From the NCBI GenBank assembly GCA_965205245.1, contig CBDBGE010000005.1, positions 888,770 through 952,769 of the forward strand: a DNA stretch of 64,000 nucleotides. The letters run 5' to 3'. Origin of the DNA: Dehalococcoidia bacterium. GTDB lineage: Bacteria; Chloroflexota; Dehalococcoidia; Lucifugimonadales; Lucifugimonadaceae. The translations under genes were made by a program, and so were the position numbers. Below, piece by piece: positions 5,393-25,256 of this stretch. The number at the start of each line of letters is the position of its first letter. Position 1 is the stretch's first letter. The notes under the pieces are model-generated. The model saw only the letters and a program-made list of their open reading frames with translations, ran no database searches and was not told where the DNA came from.

Positions 5393-6397
5393 ATGGGACT
5401 GACCGCAGGATACGTTAGCCGGCGCGTACTACTTTTTCTGGTAGTCGTTTGGGCTGCGGCTTCGATAAATTTCGTCGTTCCACGCCTCGCGCCAGGCGAT
5501 CCCACGGCAGCAATCGTGGCGCGCCTCGAGTCCCAGGGGGGCCGCGTTGAAAACTCAAAGGCGCTGATCCAGGCGTACAGGGAGAAATTCGGGCTCGACA
5601 AGCCGATACTGCTTCAGTACGGCCTGTACCTGAGGAGTTTGCCCAACTTCGACCTTGGTTTCTCCATCAGCTTTTTCCCGACAACGGTAACCGGTCTCAT
5701 CGCCCGGCACCTTCCCTGGACGGTTGGCCTTCTTCTGACCAGCCTCTTCTTTTCATTCGCCGTGGGCAGCATACTGGGGGCGCTTATGGTTTGGCCCAGG
5801 AGCGCGCGGGCATTGAAGGTGGTCGCTCCGTTCACGATGGTCATGGCCGCGATTCCCTACTATCTGATGGCCCTATTGTTGCTCTGGGGACTGGCCTTTA
5901 CGTTTTCCATATTCCCTATATTCGGCGCGGCGGCCATCGGAAGCGAACTGAAAGGATTCGCCAGGTTTGGGGAGATCCTTTACTTCTCTACCCTTCCAGC
6001 GCTTTCGATCGTCATATCGAGCATCGGGCTATGGGCCGTGACCATGAGGGGCATCATGGTGAGTACCCTGGGTGAAGACTTTCTCACCCTGGCCGAGGCG
6101 AAAGGGTTAAGGGGTCCGCGCATCTTTTTCTGGTACGGCATGCGTAACGCCATGCTGCCCCAGGTCACCGGGCTCGCCATCGCCATAGGGCAGGTAATGG
6201 CGGGGTCCGTGATTGTGGAAGTCCTGTTTTCCTACCCCGGGGTCGGACACCTGTTATTCGAGGCGATACGCACGAATGACTATCCGGTTATCCAGGGGAT
6301 CACGTTTTTGCTCGTAGTATCGGCGGCAGGGGCTGTCCTCATCATGGACTTGATGTATCCGCGCCTCGATCCCCGCATCAGTTACGCAGCGAAGTGA
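5393..6397 (+). CDS. ABC transporter permease, DppB/OppB type
   Basis: 334 aa polytopic protein ending ...MDLMYPRLDPRISY. It is a paralog of 396..1319. Confidence 0.9.
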   Translation: MGLTAGYVSRRVLLFLVVVWAAASINFVVPRLAPGDPTAAIVARLESQGGRVENSKALIQAYREKFGLDKPILLQYGLYLRSLPNFDLGFSISFFPTTVTGLIARHLPWTVGLLLTSLFFSFAVGSILGALMVWPRSARALKVVAPFTMVMAAIPYYLMALLLLWGLAFTFSIFPIFGAAAIGSELKGFARFGEILYFSTLPALSIVISSIGLWAVTMRGIMVSTLGEDFLTLAEAKGLRGPRIFFWYGMRNAMLPQVTGLAIAIGQVMAGSVIVEVLFSYPGVGHLLFEAIRTNDYPVIQGITFLLVVSAAGAVLIMDLMYPRLDPRISYAAK

Positions 6398-7330: not shown

Positions 7331-7409
7331 TGTCGAGATCGGACCACCTGCTCTTTAACTCGCGCCGTGAGCGCGCTCAGGCCGGACGGTGATCGAAAGG
7401 ACCCAAGAC

Positions 7410-8282
7410 ATGTCAAACAGGCGCACGAACTGGGGCCGTTGGGGAGAGTCGGATGAGCGGGGCATGCTCAACGAACTCACCCCGGACCGCGTCATGGCGG
7501 CCCTTGCCCTGGTCGGCACCGGCAAGGTCTACAGCCTCGGCGCGCCCGTCGGGCCGGACGGGCCTGTCCACGCGACTCGCAATAAGTCCTGGCACATCAT
7601 GAACGTCATCAACAACAATCCTGAGCCGGGCGGTGAAGGCGGCGCAGACGACATCCTCGTCACCCAGTGCCACGCCTCCACGCACATCGACGCCCTTTGC
7701 CACGCATGGAAGAACAGCGAGCTATACAACGGTCACCCGGCAAGTGAAGTAACCCCGGAGGGCGCGCATAAGTGCGGCGTCCAGAACGTTCAATGGGTCA
7801 TCACCAGGGGCGTGATGCTGGACATACCCGGCCTGAAGGGCCTCGACCGCGTTGACGGCAGGTACGCCGTCACTCCTCAAGACCTCGACGATGCCGCCGA
7901 CCGGCAGGAGTCGGAAATCAGGCCTGGGGACGCCGTCCTTGTAAGGACCGGTTGGTATAAGACGTACGCGGAGGGCGACGTCGATTTCGGCGGCGACTAC
8001 CCCGGCGTCAGCAGGACTGTGTGCGACTGGCTGTACAACCATGACGTAGTCGCTCTCGGCGCGGACAACGTCGCAGTCGAGATATTTCCCCCTGAACCGG
8101 AGTCGAACGGCGGCCTTCCGGTCCACCAGACCATGCTCAACGATCTGGGTGGATACCTGGTCGAATTTCTGAACCTGGAAGAGCTGGCAGAGGACAAGGT
8201 CTACGAGTTCCTGTTCGTAGCCGCTCCGCTCCGCATCAGCGGCGGCGTCGGCAGCCCGATAAACCCGTTGGCCATTGTCTGA
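7410..8282 (+). CDS. cyclase-family protein (kynurenine-formamidase-like metal hydrolase), paralog 1
   Basis: NWGRWGESDERGMLN... and the metal motif CHASTHIDALCH (H-x3-H-x-D-x3-H). An RBS (GAAAGGA) precedes ATG 7410. Confidence 0.8.
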   Translation: MSNRRTNWGRWGESDERGMLNELTPDRVMAALALVGTGKVYSLGAPVGPDGPVHATRNKSWHIMNVINNNPEPGGEGGADDILVTQCHASTHIDALCHAWKNSELYNGHPASEVTPEGAHKCGVQNVQWVITRGVMLDIPGLKGLDRVDGRYAVTPQDLDDAADRQESEIRPGDAVLVRTGWYKTYAEGDVDFGGDYPGVSRTVCDWLYNHDVVALGADNVAVEIFPPEPESNGGLPVHQTMLNDLGGYLVEFLNLEELAEDKVYEFLFVAAPLRISGGVGSPINPLAIV

Positions 8283-8317
8283 ACGGCAAGGAAATCACCA
8301 ACGGCTGTGACGGAAAC

Positions 8318-9187
8318 ATGAGCAGTATGCGGACATCCAACTGGGGGCGCTGGGGCGTCGAGGACGAACGCGGCACTCTAAACATGCTCACGCAGGAGCA
8401 CGTTGGGCAGGCCATCCGGATTCCAACCACCGGTAAGGTCTACAGCCTGGGCGCGCCGGTCGGACGGGAGGGACCGATCGGGCTGCGCAACGACACCCAC
8501 CACTACATGAGCATCATCGACAACGACCCATCACCGGGCGGCAAAGGGTCGGCCGATGATGTGCTGGTCACGCACTGCCACGCATCCACACACATCGACG
8601 GCCTCTGCCACATCTGGTACGACAGCAAGCTCTACAACGACCATTCCGCCTCTGAAGTGACACCAGCCGGAGCCCAGCGGTGCGGCATTCAAAACATCGA
8701 GTGGCTCATTTCTCGAGGCGTGCTGCTGGACATCGCAGCGTCAAAAGGCGTCAAACGACTTGAGAACGACTACGCCATTACCGGGGACGACCTGGATGCG
8801 GCGGCGAAGGCCCAGGGAATAGATATCCGCCCCGGCGACGTGCTCCTGATACGCACAGGCTGGTACACGCGTTACCTGGAGGGCACGGCCGACCTGCGCG
8901 GCGACTACCCGGGGCTTTGCGCGTCCGCGGCAGAGTGGATCACAGCCCACGACCTGTGCGCCATCGGCGCCGACAACGTGGCGGTGGAGATCTGGCCGCC
9001 CCAAATTCCCGACCGTGGACTGCCCATCCACAGGCTAATGCTGAGAGACCTCGGCGGATATCTGATGGAACTGATGAACCTGGAAGACCTCGCTCGCGAC
9101 GGCCACAACGAGTTTCTGTTCGTGGCCGCGCCGCTGAGAATTACCGGCGGCGTAGGTAGTCCAATCAACCCGTTAGCGATCGTGTGA
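8318..9187 (+). CDS. cyclase-family protein, paralog 2
   Basis: Collinear with paralog 1 along its full length. Motif CHASTHIDGLCH. Confidence 0.8.
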   Translation: MSSMRTSNWGRWGVEDERGTLNMLTQEHVGQAIRIPTTGKVYSLGAPVGREGPIGLRNDTHHYMSIIDNDPSPGGKGSADDVLVTHCHASTHIDGLCHIWYDSKLYNDHSASEVTPAGAQRCGIQNIEWLISRGVLLDIAASKGVKRLENDYAITGDDLDAAAKAQGIDIRPGDVLLIRTGWYTRYLEGTADLRGDYPGLCASAAEWITAHDLCAIGADNVAVEIWPPQIPDRGLPIHRLMLRDLGGYLMELMNLEDLARDGHNEFLFVAAPLRITGGVGSPINPLAIV

Positions 9188-9220
9188 TTGATCGACGGTA
9201 AACGCGAAATTGATCGACAA

Positions 9221-10090
9221 ATGAACGAGTTGCGGACATCAAACTGGGGGCGCTGGGGCGTCGATGACGAACGAGGCACGCTCAACTTGCTCACGCCTGA
9301 ACGCGTCACGCAGGCCATACGGACCCCGTCCCGCGGCAAGGTCTACAGCCTCGGCGCGCCTGTCGGCAGGGACGGCCCGATAATCGGTCAGCGCAATACC
9401 ACGCACCACTACATGAGCCGGATCAACAACGACCCATCGCCCGGAGGGCGCGGGTCTGCTGATGACGTTCTGGTCACTCACACCCACGCATCTACTCACA
9501 TCGACGGTCACGGCCACCTGTGGTACGACAACCAGCTTTATAACGGCCACCCGGCCTCGGCCATAACGCCTGACGGGGCAATTAGATGCGGCGTGCAGAA
9601 TGTAGATTGGATCGTCACCCGCGGCGTACTGCTCGATATCCCCACTGCAAAGGGCGTCTTCCGCCTGGAAAACGACTACGCGGTGACCGGGGACGACCTC
9701 GACATAGCGGCCGCGGCTAGTGCTGTGGAAGTCCGGCCGGCGGACGTTGTCCTGGTCCGAACGGGCTGGTACACGCGCTACCTGGACGGAACATCCGAAC
9801 CGAGGGCCGATTCGCCAGGACTAAGCGCATCGGCCGCGGAGTGGATAGCGTCACACGATCTGTGCGCCATCGGCGCCGACAACGCGGCCGTCGAGGTCTG
9901 GCCGCTGGAAACCCCGGGATGGGCGACTATTCACCGGTTGATGCTGAGAGACCTGGGCGGATACATCTTCGAATTCCTTAACCTGGAAGACCTCGCACGC
10001 GATCAAAGCTCCGAGTTCCTCTTCGTCGCCGCGCCGCTGAGGATTGCGGGCGGCGTCGGCAGCCCGATCAACCCCTTGGCGATCGTGTAG
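9221..10090 (+). CDS. cyclase-family protein, paralog 3
   Basis: Collinear with paralogs 1 and 2. The start MNELRTSNWGRWG was chosen by homology. The motif is THASTHIDGHGH, so both flanking Cys are replaced. Confidence 0.8.
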   Translation: MNELRTSNWGRWGVDDERGTLNLLTPERVTQAIRTPSRGKVYSLGAPVGRDGPIIGQRNTTHHYMSRINNDPSPGGRGSADDVLVTHTHASTHIDGHGHLWYDNQLYNGHPASAITPDGAIRCGVQNVDWIVTRGVLLDIPTAKGVFRLENDYAVTGDDLDIAAAASAVEVRPADVVLVRTGWYTRYLDGTSEPRADSPGLSASAAEWIASHDLCAIGADNAAVEVWPLETPGWATIHRLMLRDLGGYIFEFLNLEDLARDQSSEFLFVAAPLRIAGGVGSPINPLAIV

Positions 10091-12199: not shown

Positions 12200-13135
12200 A
12201 TGAGCACGCATAGATTTTCACAGCCGCTCAACGCTGGCCTGCATCCCGGTAACGTCGTCAGGGTGACGTGGTGGGGCGACTCCACGATCGCCATTCAGAG
12301 CGCCGATCGAACGATCGTCATCGATCCGTCGGCGAACCTGGAGCAGGACGACTTCGATTTCGTGTTCTGCACGCACGAACACTACGCGCATTCCGACCCC
12401 GAAACAGTGGAACGCCTGACGCGCAGCAGCCGTTTCAAACGCATGTACATCGCACGTTCATGTCTCTACCCGTCCGACAAACCCCACGCTCGTTATCTGC
12501 GGTTCCTTAGCGACCCTCTCTGGCAAATAGAGAAGTACGTGATTTTCTATCCCAAGCACTACGATCACACCGTCCCCCGGGGCGCTGAAGGAGACACAGC
12601 GCGATTGGCCGGGACTGGCCGTGGAGCATGGTCGGAGGAGATCGCTTCAGGAGCCTGGTCGCCGGGCGGCGGCACTCCGCGGCCGTTCGCAGGGATCGAC
12701 GAGATTTGGACCGACGGCTGGCACATCGAAGGCATGGAAATGATCGGCGACGACCCCGAGGTGCCGTATCCCGTTCGTGGAGCCATGCCACAGTTGGGCT
12801 TCCTTATAGAAGACCTCAGTTCCGGCGTTTCGTTCTGCCACCTCGGCGCCAATCGAAAGTCCTACCCAGAGATGGAAGCGGTCCGCGGGCGAGTCGACAT
12901 CCTTTTCCTCCATGTCGGCAGAATGAGCCCCGGCGACGAGGATGAGGCGCTGAGACTCATTGCGCCGCGCTGCGTCGTGCCAGTGGGGTGGCGGACCGGG
13001 GTCGAGGCATCAGACGACGGTGATTTTGGGCCGGTGGTGAATCCCGAAAGTTACGTCCAGAGGCTGAATGAAGTCGCCGATGACTTGGGGTTCGCGGTGC
13101 GACAACTATCTCCCGGTGTGGCGTACGGAGTTTAG
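12200..13135 (+). CDS. MBL-fold (UlaG-like) protein with a degenerate metal motif
   Basis: VTWWGDSTIAIQSADRTIVIDP...FCTHEHYAHSDPE. The HxHxDH motif reads HEHYAH, with Asp replaced by Ala. Confidence 0.65.
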   Translation: MSTHRFSQPLNAGLHPGNVVRVTWWGDSTIAIQSADRTIVIDPSANLEQDDFDFVFCTHEHYAHSDPETVERLTRSSRFKRMYIARSCLYPSDKPHARYLRFLSDPLWQIEKYVIFYPKHYDHTVPRGAEGDTARLAGTGRGAWSEEIASGAWSPGGGTPRPFAGIDEIWTDGWHIEGMEMIGDDPEVPYPVRGAMPQLGFLIEDLSSGVSFCHLGANRKSYPEMEAVRGRVDILFLHVGRMSPGDEDEALRLIAPRCVVPVGWRTGVEASDDGDFGPVVNPESYVQRLNEVADDLGFAVRQLSPGVAYGV

Positions 13136-13195
13136 TCACGGCGACTTAATGCCTGGTGAAATACACGCTCACGCGGTCGATGAGGGAACATTGCG

Positions 13196-14143
13196 ATGAA
13201 TGAAAGCACACCCACTCTCGATGTCGGATTGGCCAACGGCTCCGACGTTCGGCTCACGTGGTGGGGCAACGCCACGGTGGTCATCGAGAATGGCGACCGC
13301 GCCATCGTCGTCGATCCATACGTTCACCCCCAACGCGGCAGGTTCCAGTACGCATTCTGCTCCCACGAGCACTACGACCACGCCTACCCCGAAACCGTGA
13401 AGCGCCTGGTCGAGGGAGAGGGATTCAAGAAGATCATTATTCCCAGGTCCTGCCTGTATCCCTCCACCCGCTTTTTCTCGCGCCAGTTGGCGTTCCTGGA
13501 ACCGGAGCAGTACATCGTGCTCTATCCGAAGCACTATGACAGGTCCGCCACCCGTACCGGTGACTCGAAGTACGTGGGCCACTCCGACGCCTGGACCGAA
13601 GGCGAAGAATCGATCTTCCCGGAACCCCGTGAACTGCACATGGACGATTGGCACGTCGAAGGGTTCGAGATGGTCGGAGAGGACCCTGAATTACCGTTTC
13701 CGCTCAGCGGCCCCATGCCGCAACTCGGCTTCTTCATAGAAGAACTGCAGTCCGGCGCGTCTTTCTATCACTTCGGCGACAACCACTGGACCTATGAGGA
13801 AATGTCCGCCGCCGCAGGAAGGCTCGACATAATGCTCCTGCCGATCGGCAAAATGGGGGTCGACGAGGACGCTCGGGCGATGGACCTGATGAAGCCCAAG
13901 ATCGTCATCCCGATCCACTGGAGATACGAAGGGGAGGACTACCCCATTCCCGCCCTGTATCAACGACACGAGCCGCCGGACCAACAGATCCGCGGCTACC
14001 ACCTGCCGCACCCGGGCGACCCACCATACCCCGGCCAGCCGCATAGCCCATTCGAGTACATCGAGCAGTTGGAAGAGCGCGCTCGCGAACGCGGCATCAC
14101 CGTGGCCCAGATCAAGGCGGGAATCCCCCACCGCGTAGTGTGA
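13196..14143 (+). CDS. MBL-fold (UlaG-like) metallo-hydrolase
   Basis: LTWWGNATVVIENGDRAIVVDP...FCSHEHYDHAYPE has an intact HxHxDH motif. It is a paralog of 12200..13135. Confidence 0.7.
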   Translation: MNESTPTLDVGLANGSDVRLTWWGNATVVIENGDRAIVVDPYVHPQRGRFQYAFCSHEHYDHAYPETVKRLVEGEGFKKIIIPRSCLYPSTRFFSRQLAFLEPEQYIVLYPKHYDRSATRTGDSKYVGHSDAWTEGEESIFPEPRELHMDDWHVEGFEMVGEDPELPFPLSGPMPQLGFFIEELQSGASFYHFGDNHWTYEEMSAAAGRLDIMLLPIGKMGVDEDARAMDLMKPKIVIPIHWRYEGEDYPIPALYQRHEPPDQQIRGYHLPHPGDPPYPGQPHSPFEYIEQLEERARERGITVAQIKAGIPHRVV

Positions 14144-14205: not shown

Positions 14206-15585
14206 ATGTCTGACAAACTCATTAGCCCTGATGCAGCCGAGGAACTTCGACGTTCCGCGCTTGCCCACCTTTGGACTCACAACGGCGCGTGGAACGAGAT
14301 GGCCGAAGAGGGCCTGCCGTTCATCGCTGTACGCGGCAAGGGCGTGCGCATCGTCGACTCGCTCGGGCGGGAATGGATGGACGTGAGCGCCGGGTACCAG
14401 TGCGTCACGGCCGGCCACGGCCGGACCGAGTTAGCGCAAGTTGCCTACGACCAGATGTCGCAACTGGCCTACTTCCCCAATTCCGGCGCCACGCCACCGT
14501 CGATCAAACTGGCCGAAAAACTGGCCCAGATCACACCGGGGAATTTGAACCGTTCGTTCTTCGTCAACGGCGGGTCGGACGCCGTCGAGACGGCTGTCAA
14601 GCTGGCGCGCGCCTACCACAAGCGGAACGGAGAAGCAGGCCGCTACAGGATCATCAGCCGGAAGGGCTCGTACCACGGCGCCCTTGGACTGACCACTTGG
14701 CTCGGCGGGCGGGACATCAACGAGCAACGAGACTACATTCCCGCCTACCCGGGGATGCTGTACGCGCCCCAGCCCAATCCCTACCGGTGCGAATACGGTG
14801 GCCAGACGCCCTCCGAATGCGCCGAGTTGTGCGCAAACGCCATCGAGGAGCTGATCTTGTTTCACGGGCCAGAGACGGTGGCCGCGGTCGTCGCCGACCC
14901 CATTCCCGGCAACGCCGCCGTACCCGGTCCGGAATACTGGCCCCGGCTGCGGGAAATCTGCACGAAGTACGGGGTCGTCCTGATCGGAGACGAGGTGATA
15001 ACGGCCTGGGGACGTACCGGAAGGATGTTTGCAGTGGAGCACTGGGACGTGGTCCCAGACGTCATGACCGTCGCCAAGGGTCTCTCGAGCGCCTACGCCC
15101 CGGTCGGCGCGGTGATAGCCACTGAAGACATAGCGTCGGTATTTTCCGGAGGCGAGCAACACCGGCCGTTCATCCATGCGCTCACGTTCGGCGGCCACCC
15201 CGTCACCACGGCGGTCGCTCTCCGAAACATCGAGATCATCGAACGGGAGGACCTGCCCGGGAACGCGGCCGTACAGGGCAAGTATATGGCCGACAGGTTC
15301 GCCGAAATGCAGGAAAAGTATCCCGTCATCGGACACGTACACGCAATTGGCCTCCAGTTGGGCCTGGAACTGGTGAAGGACCGCGCCACCAAAGAACCGA
15401 TAGCCTCCGAATTCCGCGACATGTTGTCTTCAGAGTTGGAAAAACGGCGACTACTTGTAAGGGCGGGCACGGCAGGTTTCACCCTCTACCCACCCATCTC
15501 GATCTCGTCCGACGAAACGCAAGAACTGGCCGACAAGTTGGACGAGTCGTTCGCTGTAGTTTCGGCAAACCTCGGCCTGAATTAG
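14206..15585 (+). CDS. class-III (omega) PLP-dependent aminotransferase
   Basis: 459 aa with FVNGGSDAVETAVKLAR, LIGDEVITAWGRTGRMFA and the PLP-Lys context MTVAKGLSS. Confidence 0.85.
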   Translation: MSDKLISPDAAEELRRSALAHLWTHNGAWNEMAEEGLPFIAVRGKGVRIVDSLGREWMDVSAGYQCVTAGHGRTELAQVAYDQMSQLAYFPNSGATPPSIKLAEKLAQITPGNLNRSFFVNGGSDAVETAVKLARAYHKRNGEAGRYRIISRKGSYHGALGLTTWLGGRDINEQRDYIPAYPGMLYAPQPNPYRCEYGGQTPSECAELCANAIEELILFHGPETVAAVVADPIPGNAAVPGPEYWPRLREICTKYGVVLIGDEVITAWGRTGRMFAVEHWDVVPDVMTVAKGLSSAYAPVGAVIATEDIASVFSGGEQHRPFIHALTFGGHPVTTAVALRNIEIIEREDLPGNAAVQGKYMADRFAEMQEKYPVIGHVHAIGLQLGLELVKDRATKEPIASEFRDMLSSELEKRRLLVRAGTAGFTLYPPISISSDETQELADKLDESFAVVSANLGLN

Positions 15586-15623
15586 CAGATAATGATGAGT
15601 GAAGGGCTCAAAGAGAAATCTTG

Positions 15624-15836
15624 ATGCACAAGTACGAGATCATCATCTACTGGAGCAACGCAGATGGAGCCTTCGTAGCCGAGGTCCCTGAGCTCCAGGG
15701 ATGTGCTGCGCACGGCGACACGCAGGAAGCGGCGTTAGCCGAAATATGCCAGGCGATGGACCTGTGGGTCGAAACAGCTCGTGAATTCGGCGATAGAGTC
15801 CCGGAACCAAAAGGCGAACGGCTGATGCTGGCGTAA
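15624..15836 (+). CDS. HicB-family (UPF0150) antitoxin-like protein, no HicA partner seen
   Basis: 70 aa. YEIIIYWSNADGAFVAEVPELQGCAAHGDTQEAALAEICQAM is a typical HicB/UPF0150 fold signature. Confidence 0.7.
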   Translation: MHKYEIIIYWSNADGAFVAEVPELQGCAAHGDTQEAALAEICQAMDLWVETAREFGDRVPEPKGERLMLA

Positions 15837-15858: not shown

Positions 15859-15864
15859 TAGAGT
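15859..15864 (+). promoter_or_regulatory. -10-like box TAGAGT, module A
   Basis: It sits at the same position (41 nt before the mini-ORF ATG) as the boxes in modules B and C. No clear -35 box. Confidence 0.3.
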
Positions 15865-15905: not shown

Positions 15906-15986
15906 ATGACTCTCTCAATCCACATCCACCCTGCTCTCACGGCCACTTGCCGTGAGCGTTCCATTATTGGGAGGTACCAGGCGTAA
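15906..15986 (+). CDS. 26-codon mini-ORF A (leader peptide or small peptide), not in the ORF track
   Basis: MTLSIHIHPALTATCRERSIIGRYQA*. It aligns without gaps to mini-ORFs B and C and shares their TAA stop. Confidence 0.5.
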   Translation: MTLSIHIHPALTATCRERSIIGRYQA

Positions 15987-16017
15987 CCCGCAGGATGAAA
16001 GCGGCAACTGGACGTAA

Positions 16018-16042
16018 CCTCCCGAAGTCGGGAGGTTTTTTT
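16018..16042 (+). terminator. intrinsic terminator, module A leader
   Basis: CCTCCCG-aagt-CGGGAGG followed by TTTTTTT. Confidence 0.8.
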
Positions 16043-16138
16043 GTGAGGGCGTGTAACCAAAAAAACTTGGCGTTTCACGCCACAGTCTCGAACTCTCGTT
16101 ACGAATGATCACCTGAGCACTGTGCGGAATCGAATCCT

Positions 16139-16969
16139 ATGGAATCTTCGAGTGGCCTACTGCGGGCCGCGCACACAGCCGGCGGCGAGACTGTTGCCGT
16201 GATACGGGCCGTGGCAGGCGCCATGCGGGGTCAGTTCAGCATGAGCCGAAGGACCTTCCAGGACCTTCTGCCAACGGTCACGCACCCGTCCTTCGCCCTG
16301 ATACTGATGGCTGTGTTCGCACACGCGCGACGCGAAGACCTTGCTTCATATGCCCTGGTTGCCCCGTTCCTCATGAGCGTAGCTACGACCGCGGTCTTCG
16401 TGGCGAGCGAAGTGTTGACCCGCGAACGTGACTTTCAGACGCTCGAGTTGTCGGTTGCGAGCCCGGCGTCCTTTCCAGCCGTCCTCTTCACCCGGATCAT
16501 GGTCATCACCCTGATATCGCTAGTCGGCATCGTCGAAAGCTGGCTGATCATACGATTCGTGTTCGGCGCGACCGTCACTATCCATCATCCTGAAGTGTTC
16601 GTGGCGACCATGCTTGTGACCGCGTTCGCCTCGGGCGGCACGGCTCTGATCCCGGCGGCGTTGTTCTGTTTCGCGCAGGCGGCGCGCACTTATCAGAATT
16701 CAATCTTGTATCCCGTCCTGCTGGTCTCGGGCGTTCTGGTACCGGTCGCCGTGCTTCCGGACTGGCTGGAGCCGGTCAGCCGGCTGGTTTACCTGTACTG
16801 GTCGGCGGACCTCCTCAGGGACTCCATGCAGACCGCAACGCCCGAAGGAGTCCTGTGGGGACTGGGAATTATGGCGATTCTGGGCGCGGGATCTGCCTTC
16901 ATTGGCGGCGCGCTGATCATCAGGATGCTCAACTACCTCAGGCAGGAAGGCAGGCTTGGGATCCTGTGA
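16139..16969 (+). CDS. ABC-2 type exporter permease, module A subunit 1
   Basis: 276 aa with about 6 TM segments. It is a full-length homolog of 18106..18936 and 20095..20925. Confidence 0.85.
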   Translation: MESSSGLLRAAHTAGGETVAVIRAVAGAMRGQFSMSRRTFQDLLPTVTHPSFALILMAVFAHARREDLASYALVAPFLMSVATTAVFVASEVLTRERDFQTLELSVASPASFPAVLFTRIMVITLISLVGIVESWLIIRFVFGATVTIHHPEVFVATMLVTAFASGGTALIPAALFCFAQAARTYQNSILYPVLLVSGVLVPVAVLPDWLEPVSRLVYLYWSADLLRDSMQTATPEGVLWGLGIMAILGAGSAFIGGALIIRMLNYLRQEGRLGIL

Positions 16970-17754
16970 ACACCCTGCGCCTCTTCCGATATAGCTTGTT
17001 GGTGGGAATAAGGGAATTCACCTATCTCTGGGACTGGAAGACATGGGCAGGAGGTTGGGTTATCCAGATGCTTGCCTCGGCGGCCCTATTCTCACTCTTC
17101 GCCCGGCTGTTCAATTCTCCCGAACACGAGCAGTTCCTCCTGGTTGGGAACGCGGTGGTCGTTGGCGCAATTGGTGTGGGCTGGGCGATTCCAATGGCCA
17201 CGAGCGACCGGTGGGCCGGGACCTACCCTTTGCTTGTGGTTGCGCCTGCCAGCCTGGTACCCGCGATAGTCGGTCGGACTTCGATCTGGCTGCCCTCCGG
17301 TGTCGCGACTTCGCTCCTGACTTTCCTCATCCTGGGCAGTCTGTTCGATCTGGCGCTGTCCTGGCCGAACTCGCTTCTTATCGTTCCCCTGGTTGCCCTA
17401 ACGTGCGCCAGCGCCTATTGCTTTTCACTCTTCCTCGGTTCCGCGGTCATTCGCATACCCCAAATGCCAACCCTGTTTCTTGTAACCATGACAATGGTGT
17501 TGAGAGCGTTCTGCGGGGTCAGCGTGCCGATAACCTTTTGGCCCGGGTACGTGCAGTTCATGGTCAAGTTGCTCCCGTTGACCCATGGCCTCCAGGCGAT
17601 CCGATTGGTCCTGGACCAGGCCCCTGCCGGCGCGGTTCTCCAGGCCGCCGCTCTCGAGGCCGCGGTGGGGCTGGGTTGGATAACCTTAGCCGTCCTGGCC
17701 ATGGACTTGATGGCCAACGCCGGCCGCAAAGACGGCTCCATCGAATTTGTTTGA
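16966..17754 (+). CDS. ABC-2 type exporter permease, module A subunit 2
   Basis: The GTG start overlaps the upstream stop (GTGA), as in module B. VNTLRLFRYSLLVGIREFTYLWDWKTW... is homologous to 18933..19721. Confidence 0.85.
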   Translation: MNTLRLFRYSLLVGIREFTYLWDWKTWAGGWVIQMLASAALFSLFARLFNSPEHEQFLLVGNAVVVGAIGVGWAIPMATSDRWAGTYPLLVVAPASLVPAIVGRTSIWLPSGVATSLLTFLILGSLFDLALSWPNSLLIVPLVALTCASAYCFSLFLGSAVIRIPQMPTLFLVTMTMVLRAFCGVSVPITFWPGYVQFMVKLLPLTHGLQAIRLVLDQAPAGAVLQAAALEAAVGLGWITLAVLAMDLMANAGRKDGSIEFV

Positions 17755-17823
17755 GTCGCGAGGGCAAAAAACGGGGCTCAGCAGCGCCACCGTGACAAAC
17801 AACCCTCGACCACGGTAAAACTG

Positions 17824-17832
17824 TGGTAGTGT
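17824..17832 (+). promoter_or_regulatory. extended -10-like box TGgTAGTGT, module B
   Basis: TGn plus TAGTGT, ending 41 nt before the mini-ORF ATG. Confidence 0.4.
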
Positions 17833-17873
17833 GGAAAGACGTTAAGTCTCACACCCCTGCCACCATTGTCCGA

Positions 17874-17954
17874 ATGACATTCCTCCTTGACATCCACCGA
17901 GTCCTCATTGTGACCAGCTATGGGTGGCACGCGTTTGGGAGGGACCAATCGTAA
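17874..17954 (+). CDS. 26-codon mini-ORF B, not in the ORF track
   Basis: MTFLLDIHRVLIVTSYGWHAFGRDQS*. Confidence 0.5.
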   Translation: MTFLLDIHRVLIVTSYGWHAFGRDQS

Positions 17955-17985
17955 TTGGCGTGCGGAAGTCGTTGGCTGATTGGGA

Positions 17986-18010
17986 CCTCCCGAAATCGGG
18001 AGGTTTTTTT
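17986..18010 (+). terminator. intrinsic terminator, module B leader (also ends the module A transcript)
   Basis: CCTCCCG-aaat-CGGGAGG followed by TTTTTTT. Confidence 0.85.
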
Positions 18011-18105
18011 GTTAGGAGGCGTAAGTGAACACGAACCTGGATTCTGTCGCCGTCCTCTCGTCGCTGACCAGGGAATAACGTGAGTACCTTGCGGGATCAA
18101 CTGAC

Positions 18106-18936
18106 ATGAGCGTGAGGAATGGCCTGTCGCGGGCCGGACATATGGCCATGGACGGTCCCATGAGCGTCGCCAGACCGCTGGTCGGCGCCACCCGGGCCCA
18201 ATTTCGCATGAGTCGCCGGGACATCCAGGACCTCACCATGGGGATCACGCAGCCGGCATTTACGTTGGTCCTGATGGCCATCTTCAAATACGCGGGCCGC
18301 GATGACCTTGCTCCCTACGCTCTGATCGCTCCGATGCTCATGGGCGTCGGGGGAATGGCAGTGTCCGTCGCCAGCGAGTTACTGACCCGCGAGCGTGAAT
18401 TCCAGACGCTCGAGCTGTCCGTGGCATGCCCCGTTCCATTTCCCCTGGTCATTCTTCCCCGAATACTGGTGGTCACATCGATCTCCCTGTTCGGAATTGT
18501 GGAAAGCTGGTTGATTATCCGCTTCGTCTTCGGCGTTGATGTCACGGTCCACCATTACGGGCTATTCGCTGCGACGATGGTCCTGACCGCGTTCGCTGCC
18601 GGTGGGACGGCCATGATCCCCGCGGCGCTGTTCTGTTTCGCCCAGGCTGCCCGGACTTTCCAGAACTCGATTACTTACCCCGCGTACCTCTTCTCGGGCA
18701 TCCTGGTACCTATCGCCGCGTTCCCGGACTGGCTCGAGCCGGTCAGTCGTCTGATCTTCCTTCACTGGTCCGGGGCCCTTCTTACGGAGTCGATGCAGCC
18801 ATCCGAGCCCGATGGAGTCCTGCTAAAGCTGGGCATCATGGCGGCTCTTGGCATTGGAGCGGCCTTTATCGGGGGCGCGCTAATGGCCAGAATGCTCGAT
18901 TTCCTGAGGCGTGAGGGGAGGTTGGGGATTCTGTGA
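18106..18936 (+). CDS. ABC-2 type exporter permease, module B subunit 1
   Basis: 276 aa polytopic protein, paralog of 16139..16969. Confidence 0.85.
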   Translation: MSVRNGLSRAGHMAMDGPMSVARPLVGATRAQFRMSRRDIQDLTMGITQPAFTLVLMAIFKYAGRDDLAPYALIAPMLMGVGGMAVSVASELLTREREFQTLELSVACPVPFPLVILPRILVVTSISLFGIVESWLIIRFVFGVDVTVHHYGLFAATMVLTAFAAGGTAMIPAALFCFAQAARTFQNSITYPAYLFSGILVPIAAFPDWLEPVSRLIFLHWSGALLTESMQPSEPDGVLLKLGIMAALGIGAAFIGGALMARMLDFLRREGRLGIL

Positions 18937-19721
18937 ATTACCTACGCCAGTTCCGATTTGGCCTGATGGCAGGCATAGGGGAATTCACGTTCATGTGGAA
19001 CTGGAAGACCTGGTTCGGTGGCTGGTTGGTCCAGATGCTGGCGCAAGCCGCTTTCTTCTCGTTGGTCGCCAGGTTGTTCGATTCGCCTGAGCACGAACGG
19101 TTCTTGCTGATCGGTAACGCCCTTGCCGTCGGCGTACACACGGCCTGCTGGGGCATTGTGTCGACCACGTGGGACAGGTGGACAGGCGCTTACCCCCTTC
19201 TCGTAATTGCGCCGACCAGCATGGTACCTGCGGTCATCGGGAGAACCTCCGTTTGGCTGGCTTCGGCCGTGGCAACTTCGCTTTTCACATTCCTGATTCT
19301 TGCCGCGATTTTTGATCTGGGCTTGCCATGGCCTGAAGCTTTGGTCCTTATCCCCCTCGTGTTCTTGACGTGTGCAAGCACTTTTTGTTTCTCGGTATTC
19401 ATCGGCGCACTCATAACGCGTCAGAGCTACCTCCGAAACCTTGTCATGGGAATTGTGAACGTGGTACTGCGAGCCTTCTGTGGGATAGCGGTCCCCATAG
19501 CCTTTTGGCCCGACTACGTGCAGTTCGTAGTCCGGTTGTTGCCCATAACCCACGGCCTGGAGGCCATACGGTTGGTGCTCGACAAGGGACCTGCAACCGA
19601 AATTCTGCTGGCCGCTGCCCTGGAAGCCGCAGTTGGGCTTGGGTGGATCGTACTCATAGTCCTGGTGATGGACCGCATGGCCGATTCCGGTCGCGCCAAC
19701 GGTTCGATCGAGTTCATCTGA
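18933..19721 (+). CDS. ABC-2 type exporter permease, module B subunit 2
   Basis: 262 aa polytopic protein. The GTG start overlaps the upstream stop. Confidence 0.85.
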   Translation: MNYLRQFRFGLMAGIGEFTFMWNWKTWFGGWLVQMLAQAAFFSLVARLFDSPEHERFLLIGNALAVGVHTACWGIVSTTWDRWTGAYPLLVIAPTSMVPAVIGRTSVWLASAVATSLFTFLILAAIFDLGLPWPEALVLIPLVFLTCASTFCFSVFIGALITRQSYLRNLVMGIVNVVLRAFCGIAVPIAFWPDYVQFVVRLLPITHGLEAIRLVLDKGPATEILLAAALEAAVGLGWIVLIVLVMDRMADSGRANGSIEFI

Positions 19722-19810
19722 TAATCGCAAGTACGAGGAGGCTCTCCTCCCGCGTATTGCCAGCCGTACGGCCTGAACATGACATCCACCCCACACCTGC
19801 ACCAATTCTG

Positions 19811-19819
19811 TGGTAGCGT
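19811..19819 (+). promoter_or_regulatory. extended -10-like box TGgTAGCGT, module C
   Basis: TGn plus TAGCGT, ending 42 nt before the mini-ORF ATG. Confidence 0.4.
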
Positions 19820-19861
19820 GAAATGGTCGCGGATCTCATTCCCCCGCCGCCCCTTGCCAAA

Positions 19862-19942
19862 ATGATCTTCCGAATTGACTGCCATTCCGTTCTCGTGGCG
19901 AACTGCTATGAGTGGTCCACTTTTGGGAGGAATCAATCGTAA
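19862..19942 (+). CDS. 26-codon mini-ORF C, not in the ORF track
   Basis: MIFRIDCHSVLVANCYEWSTFGRNQS*. Confidence 0.5.
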   Translation: MIFRIDCHSVLVANCYEWSTFGRNQS

Positions 19943-19974
19943 TTGACGTTTGGACAACGGCAACTGAGTTGGAA

Positions 19975-20000
19975 CCTCCCGAAATCGGGAGGTTCTTTGT
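19975..20000 (+). terminator. intrinsic terminator, module C leader (weaker U-tract)
   Basis: CCTCCCG-aaat-CGGGAGG followed by TTCTTTGT. Confidence 0.7.
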
Positions 20001-20094
20001 TAGAGGGCGTCATTGAACACAAAGCTGGGTTCTGTCGCCTTCCCTTCGTCACTGTATTAACAAGTCAAGTGGGCACGGTGCGGAAACAACTGAC

Positions 20095-20925
20095 ATGAAC
20101 TTGCGGAGTGGCCTGCTGAGGGCCGGACAACTAGCTGTGGGCGGGCTCCTGGCCGTCGTGCGGCCGTTGCTTGGTTCCATCAGGGCCCAGATCACCACTA
20201 CCCGGCGTGACATTCACGACGTCACTATGGGTATCACGCAGCCCGCATTTACGTTTGCCCTGATGGCGGTCTTCAAGTACGCCGGGCGCGAAGACTTGGC
20301 CCCTTACGCCCTGATCGCCCCGATGCTCATGGGTGTGGGCGGCATGGCAGTGTCGGTGGCGAGTGAGGTCATGACACGGGAGCGTGACTTTCAGACTCTC
20401 GAGTTGACCGTCGCAAGCCCAGCGCCGATCCCCGTGATCATCTTCTCCCGGATCATGGTCATCACGTCAATCTCCCTTCTCGGGATTGTCCAAAGCTGGC
20501 TGATCGTCAGGTTTGTCTTTGGTGTGGACGTCACGATCCACCATCCCTGGTTGTTCGCGGCGACGTTGCTGCTGACCGCGTTCGCGGCCGGAGGGACCGC
20601 ACTGATCACCGCGGCCCTGTTCTGTTTCGCGCAAGCAGCCAGGACATTCCAGAACTCGATCACGTTCCCGGCCTATCTCTTCTCCGGGATCCTGGTACCG
20701 ATAGCGGCGTTTCCTGATTGGCTGGAACCGGTAAGCCGGGTGATCTTCCTTTACTGGTCGGGGACCCTGCTCAGGGACGCGATGCAATCGACGACCCCCG
20801 AAGGAGTCTTCGTGAAGCTGGGCATCATGCTGATCCTGGGCGGAAGCGCGGCCTTGATAGGAGGGGCGTTGATTGTTCGCATGCTCAATTACCTCAGGCG
20901 GGAAGGCACGCTGGGGGTCCTGTGA
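20095..20925 (+). CDS. ABC-2 type exporter permease, module C subunit 1
   Basis: 276 aa, paralog of 16139..16969 and 18106..18936. Confidence 0.85.
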   Translation: MNLRSGLLRAGQLAVGGLLAVVRPLLGSIRAQITTTRRDIHDVTMGITQPAFTFALMAVFKYAGREDLAPYALIAPMLMGVGGMAVSVASEVMTRERDFQTLELTVASPAPIPVIIFSRIMVITSISLLGIVQSWLIVRFVFGVDVTIHHPWLFAATLLLTAFAAGGTALITAALFCFAQAARTFQNSITFPAYLFSGILVPIAAFPDWLEPVSRVIFLYWSGTLLRDAMQSTTPEGVFVKLGIMLILGGSAALIGGALIVRMLNYLRREGTLGVL

Positions 20926-21710
20926 ACACGCTGCAACGCATCCGCTTTGGTCTCCTCGTGGGCACGCGGGACTTCACCCTCTATTGGAACTGGAAAACGT
21001 GGTTCGGTGGCTGGATGGTCCAGATGGTGGCCCAGGCAGCCTTCTTCTCCATGTTTGCCAGGCTGTTCGACTCGCCTTACCACGAGCAGTACCTACTTAT
21101 AGGCAATGCAGTCGCTGTCGGCGCGCAAGCGGTGTGTTGGACAATTCCATCCTCGACGTGGGACCGTTGGACTGGAACGTATCCCCTCCTGGTTATTGCG
21201 CCTGCCAGTCAATTCCCAGCCGCCGTCGGACGGAACTCCGTTTGGATGCTATCCGGCATCGCCACTACGCTCGTGGTGTTCGTCATTCTGGGCGCGGTCT
21301 TCAACCTGTCTCTGCCATGGCCCAACACGCTGTTCCTGGTTCCGTTGGTCGTGTTGACGCAGGTCAGCACGTTCTGCTTCGCACAATTCCTCGGGGTCTT
21401 TGTCATACGCCAATACCAAATGCGAAACCTGTTACTTGGCACGGTGACAATGGGCGTAAGAGCGTTCTGCGGCGTAAGTGTGCCTATCGCCTTCTGGCCG
21501 GGCTCTGTCCAGTTCGTCGTCAAATTGTTGCCCATCACCCACGGGCTCGAGGCTATCCGGCTCTTGCTGGACGGGGCGCCCGCACATGCCATTCTCCAAG
21601 CCGCCGCGTTAGAAGCAGTGGTGGGCACGGGTTGGCTTGTCCTTGCAATGTTGGCGATGGATCGCATAGCCGAGTCCGGCCGCAAAAGCGGTTCAATCGA
21701 GTTCATTTGA
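20922..21710 (+). CDS. ABC-2 type exporter permease, module C subunit 2
   Basis: The GTG start at 20922 was chosen by homology (VNTLQRIRFGLLVGTRDFTLYWNWKTW...). The longer track ORF 20718..21710 is an out-of-gene extension. Confidence 0.85.
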   Translation: MNTLQRIRFGLLVGTRDFTLYWNWKTWFGGWMVQMVAQAAFFSMFARLFDSPYHEQYLLIGNAVAVGAQAVCWTIPSSTWDRWTGTYPLLVIAPASQFPAAVGRNSVWMLSGIATTLVVFVILGAVFNLSLPWPNTLFLVPLVVLTQVSTFCFAQFLGVFVIRQYQMRNLLLGTVTMGVRAFCGVSVPIAFWPGSVQFVVKLLPITHGLEAIRLLLDGAPAHAILQAAALEAVVGTGWLVLAMLAMDRIAESGRKSGSIEFI

Positions 21711-21735
21711 AAACCACATGTACGGGGAGGCAGCC

Positions 21736-22677
21736 ATGAACGCAGTAACGACCACGGACCTCCGCAGGGTCTACAAGAGCAGGGACGGCAATCCCGATGT
21801 AGTCGCGCTCGACCGCGTCTCGATGGACATCAGGGAGGGCGAGGTCCATGGGCTCCTGGGACCGAACGGCGCAGGCAAGACTACCCTGGTGAAGGTGCTG
21901 TCTACCGTCCTCCTCCCTACGAGCGGGTCCGCTTCGATACTTGGACACGACGTGGTCCGCGAGACCAAGGCGGTCCGGCCCCTGATCGGCATCGTCCTGG
22001 GCGGCGACCGCGGGCTTTACTGGCGACTGACCGGCCGTCAGAACCTGGAGTACTGGGCTGCGCTCTACAACGTCCCCGCCGGAACGGCGAAGGAACGCAT
22101 CCCTAAGTTGCTGGAAATGGTCGGCCTCACCGACCGCGCCGACTACCTCGTCGAGGGCTACTCCCGCGGAATGCGGCAGCGCATCCACCTTGCCAGGGGG
22201 CTGGTCGGCGACGCGCGCGTGCTTTTCCTCGACGAGCCGACCGCCGGCATGGACCCGTTGGCTTCCCGCGATTTTCGCAACCTCGTCGGGAATCTACGCT
22301 CCGAGGGCCGGACGGTCCTGCTGACTACCCACGATATGGCGGAGGCGGAAGCGGTGTGCGATCGGGTAACGCTCATCGACAAGGGGAAAATCATCGCGGT
22401 CGAGACCCCGCGGTCGCTCAGCAGACTGATCGCCGGCAACGAGCGGATCGACTTCGAGGGCGGTCCGGACGGATTGAAGAACTCTCTACAAACACTGCCG
22501 GGCGTGACTTCAGTGAACCCGCTGCCCGATGGCGGCAACCGCGTGGAACTAGAGGGGGATGACGCCAAGCAGGGCGTCCTGAAGGCCCTCGTAGACGCCG
22601 GAGTCACGACGATATCCACGTCGCGGCCAAGTCTCGAAGAGGTCTACGTCCGGGTGATCGGAGACAAGACGGAATGA
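21736..22677 (+). CDS. ABC-2 exporter ATP-binding protein (DrrA/CcmA-like), the only NBD in the cluster
   Basis: A strong RBS (GGGGAGG) lies 5 nt before ATG 21736. Walker A GPNGAGKTT, signature YSRGMRQR, Walker B LFLDEPTAGMD. Confidence 0.9.
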   Translation: MNAVTTTDLRRVYKSRDGNPDVVALDRVSMDIREGEVHGLLGPNGAGKTTLVKVLSTVLLPTSGSASILGHDVVRETKAVRPLIGIVLGGDRGLYWRLTGRQNLEYWAALYNVPAGTAKERIPKLLEMVGLTDRADYLVEGYSRGMRQRIHLARGLVGDARVLFLDEPTAGMDPLASRDFRNLVGNLRSEGRTVLLTTHDMAEAEAVCDRVTLIDKGKIIAVETPRSLSRLIAGNERIDFEGGPDGLKNSLQTLPGVTSVNPLPDGGNRVELEGDDAKQGVLKALVDAGVTTISTSRPSLEEVYVRVIGDKTE

Positions 22678-25230: not shown

Positions 25231-25256
25231 AGAAGGCCGGGTCGCCCCGGCCTTCT
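25231..25256 (-). terminator. hairpin terminator after the betaine-binding protein gene
   Basis: AGAAGGCCGGG-tcgc-CCCGGCCTTCT gives 11 perfect bp. On the minus strand it is followed by GGCTTTCTG. Confidence 0.5.

Follow-up and report, generated by a model that had tools for sequence, protein, structure and literature searches.

What might three very short open reading frames (ORFs) be doing when each is followed by a perfect hairpin with a T-tract and each stands in front of its own pair of permease genes? The question is raised by a stretch of 64,000 nt (the window: positions 888,770-952,769 of contig CBDBGE010000005.1, assembly GCA_965205245.1) from a Dehalococcoidia bacterium of a lineage that is uncultivated and represented by metagenome-assembled genomes (MAGs). 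Three tandem modules, A, B and C, each consist of a leader and two ABC-2 (ATP-binding cassette) permease genes, and a single ATPase gene shared between them follows the last. Our answer, drawn from sequence comparison and held with a probability of about 0.65, is that each module opens with a ribosome-mediated transcription attenuator that gates DrrAB-like ABC-2 exporter genes. Comparison with homologous loci establishes the terminator, a covarying antiterminator that overlaps it, a hairpin (P1) inside the ORF and the conservation of the ORF itself. The features from which the question starts are the ORFs and the terminators behind them:

15906-15986, plus strand: leader ORF A, 26 codons and TAA, MTLSIHIHPALTATCRERSIIGRYQA; start, length, frame and stop kept in 14 of 14 homologues.
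17874-17954, plus strand: leader ORF B, 26 codons and TAA, MTFLLDIHRVLIVTSYGWHAFGRDQS; from the ORF listing and the homologue comparison.
19862-19942, plus strand: leader ORF C, 26 codons and TAA, MIFRIDCHSVLVANCYEWSTFGRNQS; from the ORF listing and the homologue comparison.
16016-16042, plus strand: intrinsic terminator A, AACCTCCCG-AAGT-CGGGAGGTT in a T7 run; from the sequence and the terminator scan; hairpin of -15.3 kcal/mol.
17984-18010, plus strand: intrinsic terminator B; from the sequence, the terminator scan, comparison and folding.
19973-20000, plus strand: intrinsic terminator C, with the weaker T-tract TTCTTTGTT; from the sequence, comparison and folding; not called by the terminator scan.

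The hairpins themselves (CCTCCCG, 4 nt, CGGGAGG) occupy 16018-16035, 17986-18003 and 19975-19992, with T7 behind the first two, and the terminator scan places A and B within its top three hits. In all three ORFs codons 22-23 read GGGAGG (15969-15974, 17937-17942 and 19925-19930), at distances of 43, 43 and 44 nt from CCTCCC, and the first base of TAA lies 15 nt downstream of the first G of this hexamer. An earlier note on this DNA had reported the hairpins, the hexamers, the position of the stop codon and the weaker third T-tract, and its coordinates are exact to the base. GGGAGG alone is not enriched in the window (43 observed, 55 expected); the composite GGGAGG-N30-60-CCTCCC-N3-8-GGGAGG occurs three times, and never in 100 shuffles.

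The simplest explanation would be that the hairpins are plain terminators closing the preceding unit, and that GGGAGG is a mere Gly-Arg codon pair or a coincidence inherited through duplication. The hexamer is indeed not rare, and the three copies in the window are paralogues (permeases about 65% identical; mean column identity of the leader DNA 74%) whose shared features are not independent, so the meaningful test is a comparison with other genomes. A genome scan with the permease yielded five Dehalococcoidia MAG loci and a protein search yielded 61 relatives, the loci of 11 of which were retrieved (L numbers below); a metagenome scan with the permease returned only distant permeases, at 40-49% identity. 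A 26-codon leader lies 5' of the first permease gene in L001 (three copies), L002, the second module of L005, L014 (identical to L015), L016 (two), L025 and L026 (two), and it is directly upstream of that gene in every one of the 15 copies, which come from nine loci plus the window. The counts that follow refer to an alignment of 14 distinct 26-codon leaders, the three of the window and 11 further ones from related Dehalococcoidia, unless another set is named. A profile of these leaders found no further copy in the 304 kb searched, and it did not detect a second, 37-codon type of leader described below.

The ORF sequences of the 14 leaders differ at about 25-30% of positions; GGGAG is nevertheless invariant, and the sixth base is G in 13 of 14, the exception being L026a with GGGAGC. 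The third base of codon 22 (GGG) never varies and the one exception to AGG at codon 23 is AGC in L026a, whereas turnover is seen at other synonymous sites: the pairwise third-position difference is 0.00 and 0.14 at codons 22 and 23, and 0.58-0.71 at codons 2, 8 and 13. Because the third bases are frozen and both are minority codons in the window's genes (GGG 21% of Gly, AGG 16% of Arg), the constraint on the hexamer acts at the nucleotide level. That GGGAG is kept in 14 diverged copies and in three unrelated leaders while neighbouring and synonymous sites vary, that compensatory changes extend its helix beyond the hexamer, and that the single-module loci L002, L003, L004 and L025 carry a leader though no permease module precedes it, together make coincidence or simple closure of the preceding unit hardly credible. 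The earlier note had named as a refuting case homologous loci that keep the terminator and lack the upstream GGGAGG; we looked for such loci and found none without GGGAG, the one deviation being the GGGAGC of L026a, and loci missing one element miss all of them. No ORF, terminator or GGGAGG was seen in L005 at 4005, in L014 at 6006, or in L006-L013, L017-L022, L024 and L027. Of these, L006-L013 are the more distant permease homologues (40-49% identity), and the other leaderless loci include several closer clades; with distant and several closer homologues lacking the leader, its family must be small. In the two-module genomes L005 and L014, the first permease pair comes from a different clade and has no leader at all.

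What, then, is the partner of the hexamer? The earlier note had suggested that GGGAGG pairs with CCUCCC, the 5' arm of the terminator, and so excludes the terminator. A covarying helix, the consensus fold and 14 of 14 local folds all argue for this. The extent of 6 bp that it had assumed is another matter: the hexamer pairing stands, and the helix runs from codon 21 to codon 25 on one side and through the 14 nt that end in the CCUCCC region on the other. In the window its strands are:

15967-15980, plus strand: antiterminator 5' strand A, TT-GGGAGG-TA-CCAG, covering the last two bases of codon 21 and codons 22-25; alignment columns 104-117.
16012-16025, plus strand: antiterminator 3' strand A, with CCTCCCGA at its end, overlapping the terminator's 5' arm; columns 150-163.
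17935-17948, plus strand: antiterminator 5' strand B, TT-GGGAGG-GA-CCAA; from comparison, with a local minimum-energy fold of -32.0 kcal/mol.
17980-17993, plus strand: antiterminator 3' strand B, TTGG-GA-CCTCCC-GA; from comparison and folding.
19923-19936, plus strand: antiterminator 5' strand C, TT-GGGAGG-AA-TCAA; from comparison and folding.
19969-19982, plus strand: antiterminator 3' strand C, TTGG-AA-CCTCCC-GA; from comparison and folding.

Twelve pairs are counted, columns 104-111 with 156-163 (UU-GGGAGG with CCUCCC-GA) and columns 114-117 with 150-153 (CCAG with CUGG), separated by a 2x2 internal loop. They are formed in 94% of cells, four of them are changed on both sides, the observed covariation score is reached by 1 of 500 shuffles, and sliding the partner strand by 1-3 columns makes the pairing break down. 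The compensation can be read directly from the alignment (CCAG/CUGG in L001B, UCAG/CUGA in L001C, CCGG/CCGG in L016b); at greater length, TCAGTC/GACTGA in L001C matches CCAG/CTGG in L001B, the changes being paired just upstream of CCUCCC. The RNAalifold consensus minimum-energy fold of the 14 leaders is composed of the antiterminator and P1, not of the terminator, with six pairs changed on both sides. The predicted terminator (an 8-9 bp hairpin with a tetraloop, then U6-8, lying 31-32 nt past the leader stop codon; columns 154-162 with 167-175) is paired in 97% of cells across the homologues, shows no pair changed on both sides and is almost invariant, as expected if CCUCCC must match two partners at once. 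A small hairpin around the stop codon (CCAAT-cgta-ATTGG, TCAAT-cgta-ATTGA), which the earlier note had read as a compensated structure, is present in B and C and is not conserved: columns 114-118 with 123-127 are 63% paired with one double change, and 165 of 500 shuffles reach the score. Its bases belong to the 5' strand of the antiterminator, so the changes seen in them are matched just upstream of CCUCCC.

The other conserved helix, P1, lies within the ORF:

15936-15956, plus strand: hairpin P1 in ORF A, codons 11-17, CTCACGGC/GCCGTGAG; columns 73-80 with 86-93.
17904-17924, plus strand: hairpin P1 in ORF B; from the alignment and RNAalifold.
19892-19912, plus strand: hairpin P1 in ORF C; from the alignment and RNAalifold.

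P1 is paired in 97% of cells and has two compensatory pairs (CUCAU/AUGAG becomes CUCAC/GUGAG in window A and CUCGCGG/CCGCGAG in L001A); tested jointly with the terminator, its observed score is reached by 1 of 500 shuffles. A U-rich sequence follows about 11 nt past it, immediately before GGGAGG. Two further structures fared less well. The mini-hairpin UCCA/UGGG (columns 97-100 with 105-108) is 95% paired, yet 172 of 500 shuffles reach the observed value, and a trp-like 1:2 helix, which would join GGGAGG to the pyrimidine-rich codons 2-9, was rejected, with RNAduplex z between -2 and +0.9 against shuffles and a register that is not conserved. RNAalifold found no conserved structure in the spacer or in the 5' untranslated region (UTR) of the 14 leaders and no conserved multi-helix aptamer, P1 being the single conserved hairpin upstream of the expression platform. 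A search of Rfam gave no family match; its only hits, to Phe_leader (RF01859), cover two of the terminators and, at 27.0 and 25.4 bits (E-values 0.33 and 0.79), stay below the gathering score of 55.

The same design appears a second time, in loci L003, L004 and L023, in 37-codon leaders whose sequence is unrelated to the 26-codon type. Here the ORF has a conserved AGGAG 8 nt before its ATG and ends TCC GGG AGG ACC TAG (3/3), and synonymous turnover is seen at its Pro, Tyr, Ala, Arg and Phe codons. Downstream come a CUCAC-AGC-GUGAG hairpin and then a terminator with CCUCC in its 5' arm, with a compensatory G-C to A-U change in L023; the antiterminator is computed at -21 to -26 kcal/mol and the terminator at -11 to -13 kcal/mol.

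How could such a pair of structures be switched? Local folding of the 26-codon leaders, limited to the stretch that runs from region 2 up to and including the 5' arm of the terminator, sets GGGAGG against CCUCCC in all 14 minimum-energy structures, at -18.4 to -32.0 kcal/mol, compared with -12.7 to -15.7 kcal/mol for the terminator hairpin. If the bases that a ribosome would cover with the stop codon in its A site are held unpaired, the terminator forms in 13 of 14. To this extent, and in modelling only, the geometry and the masked folds fit the earlier suggestion that a ribosome at TAA would favour termination. By computation the structural switch is well supported, and it is plausibly a balanced one.

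We infer the following mechanism, including its promoter, the translation of the ORF, the masking by the ribosome, the role of P1 and the inducing signal. Transcription would start from an extended -10-like element and produce a 5' leader of about 170 nt that contains the 26-codon ORF. The last sense codons of the ORF (GGG AGG NAN CNN) would form the 5' strand of a long imperfect antiterminator hairpin whose 3' strand ends in CCUCCC, the same CCUCCC serving as the 5' arm of the terminator (CCUCCCG, tetraloop, CGGGAGG, U-tract). In the OFF state a ribosome would arrive promptly at UAA while RNA polymerase copies the next ~60 nt; codons 21-26 would be unwound and covered, CCUCCC would be left free for the downstream GGGAGG, and transcription would stop ahead of the permease genes. 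In the ON state the ribosome would arrive late, move slowly or stall, its P site no further along than about codon 16, and the antiterminator, made earlier and locally stronger, would form first; RNA polymerase would then read into the two permease genes and, from the last module, also into the shared DrrA-like ATPase gene. P1 and the U-rich stretch most likely slow the ribosome or pause RNA polymerase, which would synchronise the two. The signal is most likely impaired translation of the leader, for example by ribosome-targeting compounds that would turn the exporter on, if known attenuators are a guide.

Several observations weigh against this mechanism and must be set beside it. The covariation sample is small, 14 related sequences, and the shuffle control is uncorrected for phylogeny. 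When the whole upstream leader is included, the full antiterminator appears in the nascent minimum-energy fold of 6 of 14 leaders and a partial one in that of 2 of 14; in the remaining nascent folds GGGAGG pairs with the pyrimidine-rich 5' half of the ORF, and the full-length leader at equilibrium prefers the terminator in 11 of 14 (antiterminator minus terminator energy -5.5 to +12 kcal/mol). The earlier proposal that an absent ribosome means read-through therefore agrees with the local folds in every leader and not with most whole-leader folds, so a 'default ON' state would depend on the kinetics of folding. Turning to the ORF, the three codon positions vary to nearly the same degree (0.38/0.36/0.42), so that the case for coding comes from the architecture of the ORF and not from purifying selection. 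Most of the conserved residues (L11, M12, A13, C15, Y16, E17, G22 and R23) are explained by the RNA helices, no Shine-Dalgarno motif precedes the 26-codon ORFs (such motifs are scarce before most genes of the window), and the leader peptides have no run of regulatory codons and no recognisable arrest motif, for which reason the inducing signal is a guess. Tandem residue repeats are likewise missing from all 17 leader peptides.

Much of this could also be said in favour of a switch made of RNA only, in which the ORF is not translated and a ligand, protein, tRNA or small RNA binds the leader, P1 and the 5' UTR acting as the sensor. Uniform codon-position variability, a set of most conserved 'residues' that fall in RNA helices and 26-codon ORFs that lack a Shine-Dalgarno motif would all follow, the invariant CGUAA with a free first base of codon 26 looks like a nucleotide-level constraint, and there are conserved blocks in the 5' UTR. 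Such a switch would not, however, account for the ORF: ATG, frame, 26-codon length and TAA are invariant in 14 of 14, and the 81 nt have no indel at all, while the flanking 5' UTR and spacer do have indels. Nor would it account for the synonymous turnover at the kept residues Thr2 (ACT/ACA/ACC/ACG) and His8 (CAC/CAT), or for the unrelated 37-codon leaders with AGGAG 8 nt before ATG and an in-frame GGG AGG ACC TAG end. With no Rfam match and P1 as the only conserved helix where an aptamer should be, we regard an RNA-only device as unlikely.

Alternatively, the ORFs could be genes for small functional peptides (a bacteriocin or precursor of a ribosomally synthesised and post-translationally modified peptide (RiPP), a signal peptide, or a substrate of the transporter) that each go with one permease pair; the hairpin would then be a leaky terminator that sets the ratio of peptide to transporter mRNA. 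Leaky terminators of this kind are found in many lantibiotic operons. There is one divergent peptide per divergent permease pair, the peptides track the permease orthology groups, and the N-terminal T2, F5, D/N6, I7 and H8 are not explained by RNA structure. A class-III aminotransferase gene upstream (14206-15585) matches a daptide RiPP aminotransferase at 218 bits, below the cut-off of 450, and several leader peptides have a C-terminal Thr, the residue modified in daptides. The same aminotransferase scores far better against generic aminotransferase families, however (396 bits), and the C-terminal residue of the peptides varies (A/S/P/T); the daptide-like end and the aminotransferase match are probably a coincidence. 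With no excess of change at third positions, the peptide shows no clear sign of purifying selection; the peptides share about 35-45% identity, against about 65% for the permeases; and the leaders occur in unrelated gene contexts with the transporter as their sole constant neighbour. A peptide gene would also leave the covarying antiterminator and the frozen GGGAGG unexplained, and we find it highly improbable. Overall, the ORF looks as it should for a leader peptide that counts more for being translated than for its sequence. Codons are somewhat rarer in the leader ORFs (codon adaptation index 0.48-0.63) than in the genes of the window (0.59-0.76).

Two other roles for the elements around the stop codon were tried and rejected: GGGAGG as a Shine-Dalgarno motif for a downstream start (no start codon is conserved at a suitable distance), and ORFs that run through the terminator or U-tract to the permease start (17955-18083, 19943-20098), whose frames are not conserved because of indels, the region being deleted in L001A and L016a. 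A different use of the ribosome at the stop codon might be that the anti-Shine-Dalgarno of the terminating ribosome competes with the terminator arm for GGGAGG, which itself resembles a Shine-Dalgarno motif, CCUCCC mimicking the 3' end of 16S rRNA; 6 nt separate GGGAGG from the last sense codon in the 26-codon type, a typical spacing from Shine-Dalgarno to P site, and the spacing of 0 nt in the 37-codon type argues against the idea. Between terminator and permease, the stretch (16043-16138, 18011-18105, 20001-20094) is ~95 nt long in most copies and ~35 nt in L001A and L016a (L001 5960-6000; L016 5950-5988). RNAalifold gave no consensus structure for it, and it is conserved only in its last ~25 nt (GUGCGGAAACAACUGACAUG).

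Is this a known kind of control? Leader-peptide attenuators are textbook devices. To our knowledge, they have been described almost only in Proteobacteria, Firmicutes and Actinobacteria, mostly in front of amino-acid operons or clinical resistance genes. The type of control is thus well known, and what is new is the sequence family and its unusual host; our literature searches found no description of this leader element. The closest functional analogue is bmrB-bmrCD of Bacillus subtilis, a ribosome-mediated transcription attenuator of a multidrug ABC exporter for which antibiotic induction has been demonstrated (PMC4191407). Both place a short leader ORF 5' of ABC exporter genes, both combine a terminator with an overlapping antiterminator, neither has a run of regulatory amino-acid codons, and in both (here by proposal) efficient translation leads to termination and a slowed or stalled ribosome to read-through. 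They differ in that the terminator and alternative stem-loops of bmrB lie inside the ORF, whereas here the ORF ends within the 5' strand of the antiterminator; that BmrCD is a type-I (ABC_membrane) half-transporter heterodimer, whereas here ABC-2 permease pairs go with a separate DrrA-like ATPase; and that here up to three tandem copies of the device occur, in a different phylum, an antibiotic response being known for bmrB only.

The comparison extends to other leaders. In trpL, hisL, pheL, thrL and leuL the same logic of a 2:3 antiterminator and a 3:4 terminator is found, with a stop codon that lets the terminating ribosome cover segment 2 and an upstream hairpin that may be a polymerase pause signal; here, unlike there, no cognate codon run and no well-defined 1:2 helix exist and an exporter rather than biosynthetic genes lies downstream, which together with the sub-threshold Rfam score argues that these leaders are not members of the amino-acid operon families. 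The antibiotic-inducible leaders of mef(E)/mel(msrD) (PMC4335068, PMC10314930) and vmlR (PMC9226507) act by transcription attenuation of resistance genes: a leader ORF and terminator stand 5' of an efflux or resistance gene and ribosome stalling relieves termination, RNA polymerase pausing contributing in vmlR (PMC9226507). Unlike the present leaders, in which no arrest motif is recognised, those have defined drug-dependent arrest sites or peptides, and mostly ABC-F or major facilitator superfamily targets. Leaders of ermC and ermB also use a short peptide as a ribosome-based sensor that switches RNA structures, yet they unmask a ribosome-binding site and so exert translational control; here transcriptional control is indicated by a canonical hairpin and U-tract that lie ~95 nt ahead of the start codon under control, or ~35 nt ahead of it in L001A and L016a. 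It is the likeness to bmrB-bmrCD, mef/mel and vmlR, with a DrrAB-like exporter downstream, that makes ribosome-targeting compounds our best guess for the cue.

Our current understanding of attenuation is left unchanged by these leaders. They would add a clear, comparatively supported example from uncultivated Dehalococcoidia (Chloroflexota), with no Rfam family and with two sequence-unrelated versions of one design. If the attenuator reading is correct, the leader could serve as an annotation marker for inducible exporter cassettes in such genomes and as a compact, portable sensor of translation status, and it would raise the question of how a single ATPase gene can be shared by one, two or three permease pairs that are each gated separately. 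The genes that would be gated in the window are:

16139-17754, plus strand: ABC-2 permease pair of module A (genes 16139-16969 and 16966-17754); Pfam ABC2_membrane.
18106-19721, plus strand: ABC-2 permease pair of module B (genes 18106-18936 and 18933-19721); Pfam, with weak NCBIfam DrrB-family matches.
20095-21710, plus strand: ABC-2 permease pair of module C (genes 20095-20925 and 20922-21710); Pfam.
21718-22677, plus strand: DrrA-like ABC ATPase gene, the sole copy; Pfam ABC_tran and DrrA1-3_C.

By sequence the regulated genes are DrrAB-like members of the DrrAB/ABC-2 exporter superfamily, all NCBIfam matches being below cut-off (drrA 274.6 bits against 312; drrB 28 against 223). The ATPase gene begins 7 nt past the last permease gene. 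From genome to genome, a single ATPase gene serves one, two or three permease pairs (L002, L005, L014, L016 and L026; window 21710-21718).

A more elaborate possibility is that the tandem modules form a multi-channel array of sensors and exporters, in which each leader peptide would have diverged in step with its own permease pair and would act as a nascent-chain sensor that stalls on a different compound, possibly the substrate of that pair, the one shared ATPase being reached only by read-through of the last leader. This we consider a speculative extension and quite unlikely to hold.

Does each module depend on the one before it? The earlier note had proposed that the terminators also end the transcript of the preceding module and that the downstream modules and the ATPase gene would depend on read-through. 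The first part agrees with the terminator scan: no other terminator lies between the modules, so these would stop the transcripts coming from upstream. The dependence of the downstream modules does not hold in this form, for each module has a -10-like element of its own and would not rely solely on upstream read-through; the ATPase gene, with no leader of its own, would depend strictly on read-through of the last leader. The elements are:

15859-15864, plus strand: -10-like hexamer TAGAGT of module A, homologous to the TGnTAGnGT of other copies; putative promoter.
17822-17832, plus strand: extended -10-like element TGTGGTAGTGT of module B, conserved in 26-codon leaders; putative in function.
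19809-19819, plus strand: extended -10-like element TGTGGTAGCGT of module C, conserved in 26-codon leaders; putative in function.

TGnTAGnGT is found in most copies, B and C included, ~45 nt before the ATG, whereas window A has TAGAGT only; a promoter scan found no sigma-70 -35/-10 pair at the leaders. An additional upstream ATG, not conserved across copies, directly follows the -10-like element in some of them (window 19823-19861; L005 about 5745-5786). In window C it shares the frame of the leader ORF; in L005b-type copies it begins an ORF of 13 codons, and the TGA of that ORF overlaps the leader ATG (ATGA). About 30 nt 5' of the -10-like element of downstream modules lies a motif (G/A)TGACATCCAC (window 19780-19790 and 17811-17816; L005 5702-5712; L014 7685-7695), with near-copies at the ORF start (ATGACATCC) and at codons 5-9 (TTGACATCCAC), for example at window 17889-17899. 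This repeated motif could be a protein-binding site; in first modules its upstream copy coincides with the stop codon of the HicB-like gene (GGCGTGAC) and may therefore be a remnant of a duplication junction.

That HicB-like/UPF0150 gene (71 residues, 15621-15836) lies directly 5' of the first leader, with no HicA partner seen, and the order aminotransferase, HicB-like gene, leader, permeases is kept in L001, L002, L016, L025 and L026. Upstream of the modules the window has an Opp-type importer, three cyclase paralogues, two metallo-beta-lactamase-fold genes, the class-III aminotransferase and the HicB-like gene. The three tandem 'putative cyclase' paralogues (PF04199) and the two tandem metallo-beta-lactamase-fold paralogues, at 7389-10090 and 12200-14143, sit between the importer and the aminotransferase, a stretch that looks like a conserved catabolic or salvage cluster. 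L016 (101-5747) has a second, different ABC-2 transporter (ABC2_membrane_6 type) and, upstream of the leader modules, a duplicated segment of aminotransferase fragment and HicB-like gene that points to a recent rearrangement. L017 (3039-6639) and L018 (532-4132) have a homologue of the transporter that lacks a leader and is 81% identical to module B of the window; it lies 3' of genes for a Peptidase_C39_2/BtrH_N protein and an AMP-binding enzyme, a context that hints at a role in natural-product export for this transporter family elsewhere. Finally, the strongest terminator-like hairpin of the scanned region is at 25231-25256 on the minus strand (11 bp, 8 G-C pairs, AGAAGGCCGGG-GCGA-CCCGGCCTTCT); the genes on its two sides are convergent or adjacent, and it has no relation to the leaders.

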